NCBI GenBank assembly: GCA_963675755.2
Contig: CAXXMD010000003.1
Coordinates: 1,024,001-1,088,000, forward strand
Length of the DNA: 64,000 nucleotides
Direction: 5' to 3'
DNA from: a bacterium
GTDB taxonomy: Bacteria; Zhuqueibacterota; Zhuqueibacteria; Residuimicrobiales; Krinioviventaceae
Part shown: positions 37,648-48,603 of the stretch, piece by piece
How positions within the stretch are numbered: the first letter of the stretch is position 1
Layout: the number at the start of each line of letters is the position of its first letter
Program-made: the position numbers and the translations under genes
The notes under the pieces: model-generated
The model's input: only the letters and a program-made list of their open reading frames with translations
The model's database searches: none
Told to the model about the DNA's origin: nothing

Positions 37648-38160
37648 CTAGTGTTTATGTTCTTTCATGTGTTCTTTTGCTGCAGCATCAAAATATAACT
37701 CGCTGAATTTATCAGTCAACTCGCGTAACTTTTCAACATTGCTCAAATCCGTGGTTTGTTTACATTTCATAGCAGTCACAAGCATCTGGTGCAAAAGAGT
37801 AACTTTTTCAGTATACTTTTCCTGTTCCGGTTTAATGCGTTGTGTCATAAAATACTGGCTTACAATATCCTGTACCTTGTTTGCATGGTCTTCTTTATTG
37901 GTAACCCAGCGCACAAGCTGATTGTAATTAACCGGAGTTTCTCCTGACAACTGAACAATCTGGTTCATTGATTTTTCTATGGTTGTAGCATGCTCCAAAA
38001 TCAATTTTACACGCAATTCATCATTATATATACCACAAGGAATCTCACAATGGGCCATTACAGCAGATGACTGAATCCCCAGCAATAACACGACCTGAGC
38101 CAGAATAATAAAAAATTTCGATTTCATTTTTCCTCCTAAACTATTATATTTCATATTCAA
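37648..38160 (-). CDS. sodN: Nickel-containing superoxide dismutase
   Basis: Ni-hook HCEIPCGIY right after a signal-like leader; NQLVRWV..KE.HA, QYF..QR and KQT motifs; likely start ATG 38127 after GGAGG. Confidence 0.92.
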   Translation of the reverse strand: MNMKYNSLGGKMKSKFFIILAQVVLLLGIQSSAVMAHCEIPCGIYNDELRVKLILEHATTIEKSMNQIVQLSGETPVNYNQLVRWVTNKEDHANKVQDIVSQYFMTQRIKPEQEKYTEKVTLLHQMLVTAMKCKQTTDLSNVEKLRELTDKFSELYFDAAAKEHMKEHKH

Positions 38161-38320
38161 AATTGTAAAAAATATAACAATTAAATGTTATAAATATTTC
38201 AACTGTTATATAATTCTCTCAAATTGTATTTAAATTGCCGTTTTTGCGAAAAAAACTGCTTGATTAAGATGCCGAAAAATAATATGTTATAAATAAAAAT
38301 AATCGGAAAGGGAAAGTTTT

Positions 38321-39157
38321 ATGTCCAAATTACAGGGCCTCATGGTACCATTGGTGACCCCGCTGACAAAGGAACGGGAGTTTGATGCAGAGGCCATGAA
38401 CCGAATCATCGATAAATTGATCGATAATGTGAACAGTTTTTATGTAGCCGGATCAACCGGCGAATTTCTGGCATTGCCCGTAAAGGCAAGGCTTGAAGCC
38501 ATTGATACAGTTATCAAAGCCGTAGATAAAAAGGTTCCGGTCATTGCCGGGATTGGAGCATGTGCATATGAAGATGTATTGGATTTTGCAGATAAAGCAT
38601 ATGATTCAGGAGCAGACATTGTTTCCCTTCAGCTCCCTCCATATTTCCCCATGACAGATGAAATGATCGAACACTTTTTTACAACCATTGTAGAATATAG
38701 TAAATTACCACTCATGCTGTACAGTATTCCTCAATTTAATGGCAAAAAAATTCCTGTTCAAGTTGCCAAAAAATTTGTAGGGCATCCCAATGTTGTTGGT
38801 ATTAAAGACAGCAGTGGCGATCTTGATTATTTTGAAAGCCTGGTCAAAGAATGCAAAACAGATGATTACAAAGTCTTTATGGGCGAAGAAACGCTTATCT
38901 ATGAAGGTTTGAAACGCGGTTGTAATGGCAGCGTTGCAAGCATTGGACATTTGTATCCGGAATTGTGTAATGAAATATTTGACGCAGGAACAGCCGGAGA
39001 CTGGGACAAGGCAAAACAGTTGCAAGCAAAACTTGTAGAACTCCAATCCGAATATAACAAGATTGGCGGCTATTTTAGCGTAGTTAGTGGCATCAAACGC
39101 ATGATGGCCAAAGATGGTATCTGCCAGGAATACATGGCAAAAATCTTTGAAAAGTAA
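38321..39157 (+). CDS. DHDPS / N-acetylneuraminate lyase family aldolase
   Basis: P.VTP, GSTGE, PPY, LY.IP and Schiff-base GIKDSSGD; substrate not assignable. Confidence 0.88.
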   Translation: MSKLQGLMVPLVTPLTKEREFDAEAMNRIIDKLIDNVNSFYVAGSTGEFLALPVKARLEAIDTVIKAVDKKVPVIAGIGACAYEDVLDFADKAYDSGADIVSLQLPPYFPMTDEMIEHFFTTIVEYSKLPLMLYSIPQFNGKKIPVQVAKKFVGHPNVVGIKDSSGDLDYFESLVKECKTDDYKVFMGEETLIYEGLKRGCNGSVASIGHLYPELCNEIFDAGTAGDWDKAKQLQAKLVELQSEYNKIGGYFSVVSGIKRMMAKDGICQEYMAKIFEK

Positions 39158-39196
39158 TCTTTTTCAATATGTGTCATTCGTGACATATAATATATA

Positions 39197-39234
39197 GAAC
39201 ACGAATGACACAATAAACACGAATTTACACGAAT
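39197..39234 (+). repeat. Left inverted repeat of the GxxExxY cassette
   Basis: GAACACGAATGACACAATAAACACGAATTTACACGAAT, containing three ACACGAAT units; 32/38 identical to the reverse complement of 39674-39711. Confidence 0.9.
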
Positions 39235-39287
39235 CTTTCTAAACTATCATACTTTTTTGATTTAATTAATTCCAATCTGGGGGAAAC

Positions 39288-39674
39288 ATGCTTTATCAGG
39301 AGTTATCGAATCAAATTATCCATTCTTTTTATACGGTGAATAACAAACTTGGATATGGGTTCCTTGAAAAAGTATACGAAAATGCAATGATCATAGAATT
39401 GCATAAAAAAGGACTCAGAATCGAACAGCAAAAAAAGATCAATGTGATTTACGAGGGTATATCAATTGGTGAATATAATGCTGATATACTAGTTGAAAAT
39501 AAAATTATTTTAGAACTCAAAGTTTGTGAAAAATTATGTTCAGCGCATGAATACCAGTTAATTAATTATCTAAGAGCAAGCCATATTGAACTTGGTTTAT
39601 TATTAAATTTTGGTAAAAAGCCAGAATATGTTAGAAAAATTTTCACAAATGACAAAAAATCTCTAAAAATTTAA
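39288..39674 (+). CDS. GxxExxY family protein (PD-(D/E)XK nuclease-like)
   Basis: LGYGFLEKVYENA, ADILVENKIILELK, QLINYL, GLLLNFG; 128 aa. Confidence 0.93.
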   Translation: MLYQELSNQIIHSFYTVNNKLGYGFLEKVYENAMIIELHKKGLRIEQQKKINVIYEGISIGEYNADILVENKIILELKVCEKLCSAHEYQLINYLRASHIELGLLLNFGKKPEYVRKIFTNDKKSLKI

Positions 39675-39711
39675 TTCGTGCAAATTCGTGTCTTTCGTTT
39701 TATTCGTGTTC
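39674..39711 (-). repeat. Right inverted repeat of the GxxExxY cassette
   Basis: ATTCGTGCAAATTCGTGTCTTTCGTTTTATTCGTGTTC; begins in the stop codon. Confidence 0.9.
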
Positions 39712-39739
39712 AATTCTAACCTTTATCATAAGGTGTGTT

Positions 39740-40978
39740 ATGAAAAATCCCATTCTAAAAAAAATCATTATCGCTCTAAGCGCTGTGGGACCGGGTCTGT
39801 TTTTGATCGGTTATAACATTGGGACCGGCAGTGTAACCACCATGGCAAAATCCGGTGCGGAACACGGTATGACCCTGTTCTGGGCTTTGATCCTCTCGTG
39901 CGTTTTTACCTACATTCTTATGGTAGCTTACGGACAAGTCACCCTGGTTACCGGACATACCGCTTTGTACAACATCAAAACACAATTCAAATATGGCAAT
40001 ATTCTGGCACTGTACATAATGGCTGCACTGATTATTGGTGAACTGCTGGCGCTGTTGGGTGTATTGGGTATTGTAGCAGATCTGCTTCAGGAAGGTGTCA
40101 GATTATTAGGCTGGGGCACACCGCACATTGCCTGGTTCATTGTAACACTCATCATCGGTCTCTATGCGCTATTATGGTTTGGCCGTTACCAGGTCTTTGA
40201 AAAAGTGTTGACTGCATTTGTAATTTTAATGGGACTCTGTTTTCTGGTTGTATTTTTTATGGTTAAACCCAGTTTTGCGGCAATTGCAAAAGGGATGATA
40301 CCCGGTATTCCCAGCACACCCGGTGCAATGGGATTGGTAGCTGCCATGGCAGGCACCACCTGTTCGGCTGCGGTTTTTATTATGCGCAGTACGGTTGTTG
40401 CGGAAAAAGGATGGAACCTGAGTCACTTGAAAAACGAGAAAAAAGACGCCTTTGTATCTGCGGCCATGATGCTGTTTCTCAGTGGAATTATTATGGCTGT
40501 ATCTGCGGGCACACTGCACATTATGGGATTAAAACTGGACAATACCGTAGAAATGATCCACATGTTTCAACCCCTCGGTGGTAAATTTGCGGCTTTTGTT
40601 CTGATCTTGGGAATCACCGGTGCAGGACTTTCAACCGTGTTCCCCATTGTTTTGATAGCCCCCTGGCTCGTCAGCGATTATACCGGCAAACCACGTGACA
40701 TCCATTCACCCATGTATCGCACACTTATGTTTATCGGTATATTATTTGGATTGGGACGAATTTTTCTGGAACAGCGTCCCCCGGCTTTGATGGTCTTTTC
40801 ACAGGCGTTTCAGGCGTGTATATTACCGGCTGTAGCCATCCCTATTTATGTGCTCATTACCCGGTCATCCTTAATGCAGAAACATACTGCAAATCTGAAA
40901 ATGAAAATTGGAATAATAGCGGTTATTTTGTTCTCGCTACTGACCACCTATTTTGCAATCAAAGAATTGTTGATATAA
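39740..40978 (+). CDS. Nramp-superfamily transporter (divergent, YcsG-like)
   Basis: GPGL...GYNIGTGSVTT...GA..G..L.W N-terminus, about 11 TM helices; lacks the canonical DPGN. Confidence 0.8.
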   Translation: MKNPILKKIIIALSAVGPGLFLIGYNIGTGSVTTMAKSGAEHGMTLFWALILSCVFTYILMVAYGQVTLVTGHTALYNIKTQFKYGNILALYIMAALIIGELLALLGVLGIVADLLQEGVRLLGWGTPHIAWFIVTLIIGLYALLWFGRYQVFEKVLTAFVILMGLCFLVVFFMVKPSFAAIAKGMIPGIPSTPGAMGLVAAMAGTTCSAAVFIMRSTVVAEKGWNLSHLKNEKKDAFVSAAMMLFLSGIIMAVSAGTLHIMGLKLDNTVEMIHMFQPLGGKFAAFVLILGITGAGLSTVFPIVLIAPWLVSDYTGKPRDIHSPMYRTLMFIGILFGLGRIFLEQRPPALMVFSQAFQACILPAVAIPIYVLITRSSLMQKHTANLKMKIGIIAVILFSLLTTYFAIKELLI

Positions 40979-40997
40979 TTGAATTTCGCTGGCGTAT

Positions 40998-42125
40998 TTA
41001 CAATTCCATGGATTGTAAATATGCCTTTGCGTTTCCGGTTTCCAAAATCTCGCGTATTACCAATGCCGCTTTGTCATTGATCCCCTTGATGCTTTCCAAT
41101 TTATCTTTTAGCTCAGACACCGGCTCGCCTGTTTTTGCAAGTGACCACGCCGCATATCCATATGGACCTTTTTTACCTTTTAAGCGCATCATGTAATCCA
41201 TCTGTTCCAGCATCACAATTACCCGGTCTGTTTCATCCAGAATGTCATCAAACACCGGTTTAGGTACTCTTAGTGGTATATTGTGTTCTTTGGCAGCCTT
41301 GAGCAGGTTTGCATGTATCCAGTCATAGTATTTGCCAATTGCCTGCCCCCAACGATCGCCTTTGTAGATTTTACGATATTTGCCCAGCTCTTTAGGATAA
41401 TGCTTTTCAATCACAGATTCAAAATACTGCCGCTGACGACCATCTTTGAGCGTCATGCCGCCAAAGTGGATATAATCCAGTCCCGCGTCTGCCGCAGCTT
41501 TAACAGATCTCTCTATTTGCTCCTCAGAATCCGTTATAAAAGGAATAACCGGCAGCAGATACATGCCGCATATCACACCCTGCGCTTTAAACTTTTTCAA
41601 AGTCTCTAATCTTTTTAAAGGAGAGGGCACACCCGGTTCAAAAATCCGGCTAACATCCTCATCTACGGATGAAAAGCTCATGCTCAATAGTGTTCGCTGT
41701 TTTTCATGGATGCGGAGGAGTATATCCATATCCCGCTCCACCAGTGTGGATTTGGTCAGCACATGCACAGGATGATTAAAATATTCTATCAGCTCCAATG
41801 CGCCCCGGGCCAGTTTGTACTGCTTTTCAAGCGGCTGATAGCTGTCACCTACACCCCCGCCAAGCAATATAAAACTACGCTTCATGGGCTTGCGTTTTCG
41901 GGATGGATCCAACTCTCGTTTTAACAAGTCCAGCGCATTGGTCTTTACGCTAATATCGCAGCCAAATTCACCATCTACATAATACCCTTCGGCCCTGCCG
42001 TCACAATATGAACAATTGTGTGTGCACCCCCGGTACAGATTCATCCCATAGTAGCTTAAAAACCAGGATTCAATTTTCTTTTGTTTACGTAAAATGGATT
42101 TGGACTGGATCTCGTGAACGTTCAA
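40998..42125 (-). CDS. Radical SAM protein (SplB / Rv2578c-like) with C-terminal HhH extension
   Basis: N.YRGCTHNCSYC, DSYQP.E, LTKS.LV.RD.D, FEPG..SP..RL, PVIPFITD. Confidence 0.88.
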   Translation of the reverse strand: MNVHEIQSKSILRKQKKIESWFLSYYGMNLYRGCTHNCSYCDGRAEGYYVDGEFGCDISVKTNALDLLKRELDPSRKRKPMKRSFILLGGGVGDSYQPLEKQYKLARGALELIEYFNHPVHVLTKSTLVERDMDILLRIHEKQRTLLSMSFSSVDEDVSRIFEPGVPSPLKRLETLKKFKAQGVICGMYLLPVIPFITDSEEQIERSVKAAADAGLDYIHFGGMTLKDGRQRQYFESVIEKHYPKELGKYRKIYKGDRWGQAIGKYYDWIHANLLKAAKEHNIPLRVPKPVFDDILDETDRVIVMLEQMDYMMRLKGKKGPYGYAAWSLAKTGEPVSELKDKLESIKGINDKAALVIREILETGNAKAYLQSMEL

Positions 42126-48086: not shown

Positions 48087-48145
48087 ATTCTAATATCACT
48101 TGAAGGGGATCAACAAGCTTAATTATTCTAACATCTTAATACCTC

Positions 48146-48603
48146 AACCACAGAGCCACAAAGAACACAGAGAAAAATAAAAGACAACCTCCCGAGGGCT
48201 GATAATCCCTCGGGAGGATTATTTCCAATACTGTTCTATCCCCATCAGTTCCAGGGCAGAGCCACTGGAACCAGAAACGAAAATTCCCGGGCCCTGAGTT
48301 CGAGTGAGTTCGCTTATTGCGAACGAGAGTATCGAAGGGCCGGAATTCGACTCTCTTACTCTTGCCCAAAAACTTAACCACAGATGCATCCGCCAGTGGG
48401 CAGACAGGCGCGGATAAAATCACGATCGCAACAGCGTTGATATCTGTCACGATCTTATTGGTTAAGGCTTTTCTCTGCGCTCTTGGCGTCTCTGCGTACA
48501 AGTTTATATTACTTGATTACACCCTCCCGAGGTGCTCACAGCCCTCGGGAGGATGATTACATTACACATATATACCCATCCTAGTTCTGCGGTTCTGCGT
48601 TAA
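48146..48603. repeat. Mosaic of REP-like palindromes and inverted motif pairs
   Basis: CCTCCCGAGG hairpins at 48188-48217 and 48523-48552; GTTCCAG..CTGGAAC at 48248-48271; CCCTGAGT..GTATCGAAGGG at 48292-48339; inverted CACAGAG/CTCTGCG pair at 48149-48173 and 48472-48496. Confidence 0.85.

Follow-up and report, generated by a model that had tools for sequence, protein, structure and literature searches.

Small genes of the GxxExxY family (PDDEXK_3; TIGR04256, PF13366) recur, together with inverted terminal arms, as a unit whose ends stay nearly the same in many phyla. The window analysed here, a 64-kb stretch (G000:C3:1024001-1088000) of the genome we call G000, holds one such unit of 521 bp at positions 39194-39714, in which a 128-amino-acid open reading frame (ORF) lies inside 41-nt inverted arms. 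The plan of these compact elements of ~0.45-0.6 kb comprises one PD-(D/E)XK gene and ~40-bp inverted arms, each arm with three to four copies of a 6-7-nt word at 9-10-bp spacing and an end reading (A)ATAGAAC. The original prediction, made from the letters of the window, had proposed an uncharacterised class of nuclease-plus-repeat element, and this part of the prediction, which is supported only in part as a whole, finds support in inverted flanks at 8/8 GxxExxY genes of G000 and at 45/74 loci across phyla. The explanation we tentatively prefer, at a little short of an even chance, is that gene and terminal repeat arrays form one minimal selfish element, with the arms as DNA sites of its own protein and with orphan arrays and doublets as its derivatives.

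Recurrence of the unit across phyla and within one genome

A one-genome-per-species scan, queried with an alignment of three G000 paralogs, yielded 553 confirmed relatives, of which the best 80 were taken. By their record labels, these best 80 belong to Ignavibacteria, Bacteroidota, Chloroflexota (Anaerolineae, Caldilineales), Acidobacteriota, Planctomycetota, Patescibacteria, Desulfobacterota, Nitrospirota, Chlorobi, Cloacimonadota, Armatimonadota, Calditrichota, and Gammaproteobacteria. Six loci with flanks under 100 nt or without a match on the + strand were dropped, and at 45 of the remaining 74 the upstream flank, locally aligned to the reverse-complemented downstream flank, scored above the maximum of 222 shuffles. 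Shuffles served as the control because flank pairs swapped between loci are not independent when arms are common to those loci. Near-identical ends (AATAGAACRCGGAT...ATCCGYGTTCTATT) were found at 43 of the 74 loci, with the anchored motif AATA|GAACRCGGATGACRCGGATTnnACGGATT ... AATCCGTnnnATCCGYGTCATCCGYGTTC|TATT; the other 31 had no recognisable terminus motif. Measured end to end, the 43 anchored elements span 440-690 bp, mostly 450-530 bp, and the right arm begins at most 3 nt from the stop codon in about half of the related loci. The window element, which ends ATAGAACACGAAT ... ATTCGTGTTCAAT, is a slightly diverged member of the cross-phylum clade. The phylogeny is mixed, and multiple transfers have been reported for PF13366 (PMC3424549). 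A bias in the orientation of neighbouring genes was considered and rejected, with 61/69 upstream and 53/68 downstream neighbours co-oriented, against a crude C1 baseline of 82% (252/307; p = 0.21 and 0.35).

Within G000, eight GxxExxY genes score past the family cut-off, and all eight are preceded by sense-oriented arrays and followed by inverted ones, where chance would give 0.012 strict arrays per gene-sized window. The words differ between copies (CACGAAT, CACGAAG, CACAGAG/CACGGAG, CACAGATA, CACGGAT, CGCAGAG), and within a copy the words of the two arms are identical or closely akin; in the sixth copy (gx6), for instance, upstream words read CACGAAT and downstream words CACRGAT. All eight paralogs also have a GGGG(G) run 4-9 nt ahead of the start codon, which would represent a uniform ribosome-binding-like signal travelling with the element. 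In the gx3/gx4 subfamily (G000:C2:2202315-2206944; L003, L004), an extra conserved box of ~20 nt, ATCGAGCGAAGCGGGCGGT-like, adjoins the arms on both sides, and a similar box was also found in a relative of another genus (L033).

Arrays are also dispersed through the rest of this genome. A strict scan found 73 of them, a profile built from these gave 112 matches at E up to 10 (92 under E = 1), and a chain scan identified 94 arrays of at least three words, compared to 3 in the reversed sequence. Most are intergenic and lie next to ordinary genes, without a GxxExxY gene. The 112 profile matches include 15 doublets of the form '(-) loop (+)' and 3 of the form '(+) loop (-)'; some arms are solitary, and others bracket other cargo. 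Gene-less '(+) loop (-)' pairs thus number three in G000, some others adjoin the gene in L118, and one occupies a position where the site in G001, a genome of the same genus, is filled. The original prediction had named genome-wide arrays unassociated with these genes as evidence against itself: arrays are indeed found genome-wide and mostly away from GxxExxY genes, yet the association of the genes with arrays is far beyond chance, and we infer that the gene-less arrays are derivatives of the element. At G000:C3:638125-641830, arm hairpin doublets were observed between ORFs whose N-termini resemble, by eye, the ends of RHS/YD-repeat toxin cassettes.

Among 41 genomes, namely G000 and 40 relatives, 39 had GxxExxY matches, with 1 to 22 in each, and in-frame stops in 35 of the ~150 matches listed indicate that many copies are decayed. 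The flanks of 29 loci from this set displayed the same architecture, with CGCGAA, CACAAAG, CAGGATA, and AGGATTA as further words. In the relative G033 (L169-L172), near-identical GxxExxY fragments lie at contig ends, and ~100 nt past the arm is also common to these copies, which suggests recent multiplication, possibly of a larger repeat unit.

The window element and its predicted nuclease

The element lies in a spacer flanked upstream by the gene for a DHDPS-family aldolase or lyase, which scores under all NCBIfam equivalog cut-offs, and downstream by a co-oriented gene for an Nramp-family transporter (Table 1); the 67 nt originally calculated for this spacer is correct. The inverted arms of the original prediction are real, although the 38 nt given for them fell short of the 41 nt measured here. 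They are 83% complementary, lie 439 nt apart, and constitute the longest inverted repeat within 39100-39800. The claim of a unit repeated at 9-10-nt spacing also held, in the form of four CACGAAT-like units per arm: left-arm units start at 39200, 39209 (degenerate, CACAAT), 39218, and 39228, and inverted right-arm units at 39674, 39684, 39693 (degenerate), and 39702, so that the spacings are mirror images (9, 9, 10 vs 10, 9, 9). The right arm does begin in the stop codon, as first noticed, with the TAA at 39672-39674 sharing a base with the innermost unit. Six copies of ACACGAAT are found in the window, compared to 2.2 expected (six were reached in 2/100 shuffles), and five of the six sit within the two arms. 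A 9-bp hairpin had been described just outside the left arm, at 39168-39189; it exists, but belongs to an arm(-)/loop/arm(+) doublet instead of being separate, and it is not kept in G001.

Table 1. Features of the window element and its two neighbouring genes (window positions)
Feature	Position	Strand	Details
GxxExxY / PDDEXK_3 ORF, 128 aa	39288..39674	+	TIGR04256, PF13366; G24, E27, Y30, D66, E76-L-K78
Left terminal arm	39194..39234	+	Terminus ATAGAAC, then four CACGAAT-type units; terminus fits cross-phylum consensus AATAGAACRCGGAT
Right terminal arm	39674..39714	-	Four inverted units; terminus GTTCAAT; innermost unit overlaps stop codon
Leader	39235..39287	+	G-run 39279-39283, 4 nt ahead of ATG
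Doublet at left border: arm(-) fragment GTGTCATTCGTG, 17-nt loop, left-arm start	39168..39212	.	I3 inverted repeat, 20-nt arms, 85% complementary
DHDPS-family aldolase or lyase, upstream neighbour	38321..39157	+	PF00701 E 2.5e-53; outside element
Nramp-family transporter, downstream neighbour	39740..40978	+	PF01566 E 2.4e-51; outside element

The encoded protein was assigned to TIGR04256 (E 8e-40, 135.8 bits, cut-off 35) and PF13366 (E 4e-40, 137.4 bits, cut-off 22) and, in line with the claim that no transposase is present, matched no other family and thus no transposase. The ORF had no match in PHROGs, and a sequence search of solved structures returned none at E up to 1. Across 40 aligned sequences (L104, with an in-frame stop, was excluded), G22, G24, E27, Y30, D66, and K78 are invariant, and E37 and E76 (at least 90%) nearly so. 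An AlphaFold2 model based on this 40-row alignment (pLDDT 93.4, pTM 0.85) consists of two N-terminal helices followed by the core sheet. Its top Foldseek matches were Cas4 SSO0001 (E 3.4e-4, TM 0.58), lambda exonuclease, and related exonucleases, and an all-against-representatives structure search (VIA) placed the BpuSI nuclease domain (Z 8.5) ahead of Cas4 SSO0001 (Z 8.0), with many restriction-type nucleases at Z 5-7, values that in this range would indicate a shared common fold only. PADLOC gave a weak match to a Cas4b profile (E 4e-4). We are confident that the modelled protein has a PD-(D/E)XK nuclease fold and, because this confidently predicted fold comes with invariant or near-invariant catalytic residues, it is likely an active metal-dependent nuclease. 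A homodimer prediction scored 0.00, which amounts to no verdict, and was used neither way.

Rfam gave no family match over 38000-41000 beyond a chance-level snoRNA, no RNA run was found to contain the stretch, a promoter scan returned 9 promoter-like sites (4.2 expected), none of them compelling and including a weak match at 39224-39253 that is not above chance, and a terminator scan identified none between aldolase and transporter. Elsewhere in the window, a second arm-bracketed unit lies at 48140-48500, with an arm(+) CCACAGAGCCACAAAGAACACAGAG at ~48146-48172 and an inverted arm of the CTCTGCG type at ~48474-48500. Its interior of ~300 nt holds many small hairpins and no convincing gene, and a 121-aa ORF across it on the - strand looks spurious.

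Arms as DNA sites or as an RNA stem

If the unit is a minimal selfish element, its arms would be double-stranded DNA sites at which each word binds one subunit of the element's own protein. This protein would then join both arms and cut at or near the termini, and the unit, as well as gene-less arm pairs in trans, would thereby move, get copied, or exchange cargo. This logic would be that of the REPIN-RAYT system, or alternatively that of a homing nuclease residing within its own palindromic target. In the homing variant, the nuclease would cut empty mirror-image sites and repair would copy the gene in, which is compatible with the mirror-image half-sites, the lack of target duplications, and the empty '(+) loop (-)' pairs.

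The original prediction had set two mechanisms side by side, namely arms folding into a double-stranded RNA stem or arms serving as DNA sites for the protein, and of these the second fits better. The RNA mechanism, which we consider unlikely, would make the unit an RNA-level element comparable to an rRNA intervening sequence: a ~35-bp stem would form in a read-through transcript, and cutting by RNase III would free or destroy the ORF RNA and leave the operon functional, with the words incidental. Pairing of the arms is indeed present in the minimum-energy fold computed for 39160-39740 (z = -5.8, 0/100 shuffles as good), although such computed pairing is expected of any inverted repeat. The lack of a terminator between aldolase and transporter also speaks for this mechanism. 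A stem selected in the sense RNA should, however, enrich G:U among mismatches, and this was not observed. The 1594 aligned arm positions from 45 loci comprise 1363 Watson-Crick pairs, 50 G:U, 54 A:C, and 127 other mismatches, such that G:U and A:C are symmetric (p = 0.77).

Conservation also lies in the words. In the 43 anchored elements, the conserved columns are those of the words (C-N-GAT, 0.8-1.0), with a period of 9-10, and specific words are retained across phyla. At the 21 variable columns, the two arms of one locus are hardly more complementary than arms of different loci (0.45 vs 0.33), a small excess that would be expected from a common origin of both arms rather than from a selected stem. 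In addition, many solitary arms have no pairing partner, and a stem gives no reason for three to four direct repeats of fixed period. Such words, spaced about one helical turn apart and mirrored at the far end, are what would be expected of multi-site protein-binding termini. The repeat word also follows the protein clade: gx2-like loci have RRAG words (9 upstream, 7 downstream) and no other class, gx5-like loci RGAT words (36 upstream, 37 downstream, along with 1-2 RAAW and 1 RRAG), and gx6-like loci RAAW words (4 upstream, 3 downstream, with RGAT 1 / 1), counts in which the rows are kin and which are no test of co-evolution. Because the units are conserved and arm complementarity is not, and because no G:U bias was detected, these comparisons of sequence favour arms that are read as DNA by a protein over arms that form an RNA stem.

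A further comparison bears on this choice. TIGR02436, a four-helix-bundle family annotated as '23S rRNA intervening sequence protein', has two genes in G000, and one of these, outside the window, sits between inverted AGCTRTN arrays (G000:C3:33515-33838). Among relatives' TIGR02436 loci (L173-L202, of which 2/30 had too little flank and were left out), 15/28 beat all shuffles, with flank words that include TCAGTTG, AACGTTG, TCAATGA, GGCTGTA, GGATGTT, and others. The like flank architecture of this family keeps the RNA mechanism alive, as well as the cassette system considered below. The intervening sequence of Coxiella, 428 nt long and regarded as selfish, carries one S23p ORF and has a 28-bp terminal stem that RNase III cuts, which speaks for the RNA mechanism; the former mobility of such sequences is a long-standing, unresolved idea (PMC4990558). 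Against this mechanism, rRNA-like sequence was detected in 0/202 loci examined. A somewhat doubtful extension of the selfish-element explanation is that GxxExxY and four-helix-bundle proteins are the engines of one unrecognised minimal mobile-element superfamily, in which direct-repeat-array ends would be read by the element's own oligomer, gene-less arrays and doublets would be REPIN-like dependents, and the PD-(D/E)XK protein would be a new transposase or homing nuclease.

Turnover, related systems and significance

Comparison with G001, whose flanking DNA is ~88-98% identical to that of G000, points to high turnover. G001 carries the window element at the corresponding position (98% identity), but the orthologue there (L010:2802-3188) has a TAA at the codon of the catalytic lysine (ELK -> EL*), along with 3 amino-acid and 5 synonymous changes. 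At the left border (39183-39199), the 17 nt between GTG and CAC are inverted in G001 (L010), so that the ATAGAAC terminus faces the opposite way and the outer hairpin is lost. Three of the G000 copies are common to both genomes (the one in the window, one at 88% identity, and one mosaic), five are missing from G001, and G001 in turn holds two copies not found in G000. At the gx7 site, G001 has matching outer arms around a small lipoprotein-like ORF, and at the gx2 site matching arms enclose 130 nt, in place of the gene, hairpin doublet, and 226-aa ORF of G000. At one of the sites where only G001 has a gene, the left arm persists in G000, together with an empty '(+) loop (-)' doublet whose words are of a different class. 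For gx2, gx7, and one G001-only locus, the segments that differ are bounded at or within arms. A separate region, G000:C3:100001-120000 (L155), is rich in arms (~12 in 12 kb), and its many indels, compared with G001, run in both directions and lie where arms are found; further short repeat families, multicopy in G001, are present here too, for instance a 154-nt unit at ~C3:108963-109155.

An empty aldolase-transporter site, which the original prediction suggested seeking among relatives, was not found. Among the Nramp orthologues of 40 relatives, an aldolase lies at most 1.5 kb upstream only in G001, and the transporter paralogue of G000 has no adjoining aldolase. Contigs from four public runs provided no joint that skips the element, and a contig from one run (X3) spans the whole stretch at ~93% identity. 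The aldolase-transporter synteny is thus limited to G001 and the X3 contig, and both carry the element.

The differences in cargo between G000 and G001 speak for a second alternative, to which we assign a slim chance: a cassette system, in which arms or '(-) loop (+)' doublets would be sites of an unlinked recombinase or of host recombination, and GxxExxY and four-helix-bundle genes would be frequent promoter-less cargo. Such a system would account for the exchanges between G000 and G001 (gx7 for the lipoprotein-like ORF, gx2 and the 226-aa ORF for 130 nt, gene for empty doublet), for the flipped 17-nt loop between inverted arm pieces, for doublets between ORFs in regions rich in arms and indels, and for an architecture common to two unrelated protein families. 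It is harder to square with an arm word that tracks the protein clade even inside one genome, and with gx5-like termini that are almost the same in many phyla, which makes a host-specific acting factor difficult to reconcile. Isolated copies, moreover, carry just two inner half-sites and not full hairpins. Integron core sites read RYYYAAC and GTTRRRY, and the element termini read GAAC... and ...GTTC|TATT; the latter does not fit GTTRRRY, a comparison of termini made with no integrase search.

Several results weigh against the minimal selfish element itself. Every difference between G000 and G001 is a replacement of content rather than a simple insertion, and no clean filled/empty pair was found; at ~90% identity, the history of these replacements is unreadable. 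The other G000 copies are 33-54% identical to the window's copy and give no sign of recent transposition. Target-site duplication, described from the outset as not obvious, was not seen at the window element; at the borders of the 43 anchored elements its length is 0 nt (30 elements), 1 nt (11), 3 nt (1), or 4 nt (1). Arms also enclose unrelated cargo, and the predicted fold comes without a separate DNA-binding domain. Gene number and array number displayed no apparent correlation across the 41 genomes, with 2 genes and 284 arrays in G013, 22 gene matches and 2 arrays in G033, and 0 genes and 19 arrays in G037, in counts from a triple-unit pattern that overlooks two-unit arms (G033) and the words CAGGATA and AGGATTA. 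Finally, the occurrence of an unrelated, non-nuclease family in a like frame weakens the case, as it means that the nuclease need not be the engine.

A third alternative, which we hold to be very improbable, is that the unit does not move. The nuclease gene would then benefit the host, the arrays would be its operators or structural sites, serving autoregulation or some other role in cis, and the scattered arrays would be further binding sites of the same proteins. In favour of this, helically spaced arrays upstream of genes are typical of operators, G000/G001 dN/dS is below 1 by hand count (4 non-synonymous, 5 synonymous), and the paralogs are old (33-54% identity). Against it, many copies are pseudogenes or fragments, congeners differ in which copies they have, the phylogeny is mixed, with the transfers reported for PF13366 noted above (PMC3424549), and the second array is always downstream, inverted, and abutting the stop codon.

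For the minimal selfish element, the closest working analogue would be the REPIN-RAYT system, in which, according to Bertels and Rainey 2011 (PMC3337134), each short gene lies between copies of a repeat type of its own and the repeats are dispersed as inverted doublets. As portrayed there, the two have in common a gene of ~0.4-0.5 kb within inverted repeat copies, a separate repeat type for each gene, very different copies in one genome, and intergenic repeats that partly form hairpin-capable inverted doublets. The element falls outside that system, as its protein is not an HUH/Tyr IS200-like transposase but PD-(D/E)XK, and its repeats are not palindromes: the arms are direct-repeat arrays in which only arm pairs are complementary. 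In addition, the GxxExxY family is spread over phyla with a mixed phylogeny, in contrast to the vertical inheritance described in PMC3337134, and array numbers range from tens to hundreds and do not cleanly track gene presence.

Similar partial likenesses link the element to other systems. The 23S rRNA intervening sequences of Coxiella and Leptospira (PMC4990558) also measure ~0.43-0.5 kb, with one small ORF and stem-capable terminal inverted repeats, and are regarded as selfish and possibly once mobile, with ORFs that tend to decay. The window copy, on the other hand, lies between protein-coding genes, its ORF has a nuclease fold and not a four-helix bundle, and its words rather than a stem are conserved; none of the 202 loci, as noted, involves rRNA. 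Insertion sequences and miniature elements (MITEs) likewise have conserved ends, repeated sites inside their inverted arms, and gene-less derivatives in the genome of the full copy, but the present element has no known transposase family, no target duplication, and no near-identical G000 copies. Integron cassettes with their attC sites likewise place promoter-less small ORFs between imperfect palindromes, with cargo that varies between close relatives, whereas the arms here are made of direct repeats and arm type follows cargo across phyla. Fold and catalytic motif are like those of Cas4, of lambda-exonuclease-type PD-(D/E)XK nucleases, and of small PD-(D/E)XK homing endonucleases such as I-Ssp6803I; unlike Cas4, the protein is half the size, shows no Fe-S cysteine cluster in the alignment, and has no adjoining cas genes.

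A full-text literature search returned no functional study of GxxExxY, PDDEXK_3, PF13366, or TIGR04256, and no link in print between GxxExxY and repeats, with paper supplements and curator comments on family models outside the search. The 16- and 17-nt arm strings did not occur in this literature, and of the 89 papers with matches to the 10-mers, none of the 20 listed concerned bacterial repeats. In a 2012 survey of PD-(D/E)XK proteins, the function of PF13366 is given as 'Unknown' (PMC3424549).

GxxExxY/PDDEXK_3 is a large, widespread family without an assigned function that is now given a concrete, testable role, because its genes are packaged by conserved array termini, these termini persist across phyla, and the arrays populate intergenic DNA. 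The same comparison links the family to the old question of the nature of ORF-bearing rRNA intervening sequences, the origin of which would also be explained if GxxExxY and four-helix-bundle proteins do belong to one superfamily. If the protein acts on the arms, word and nuclease would make up a very small programmable DNA word + nuclease pair, and the family would join the RAYTs as a second, independent case in which a gene lives with a population of dependent repeats. If a PD-(D/E)XK protein is what mobilises these units, they may be more than a variant of the known selfish gene-plus-repeat systems.

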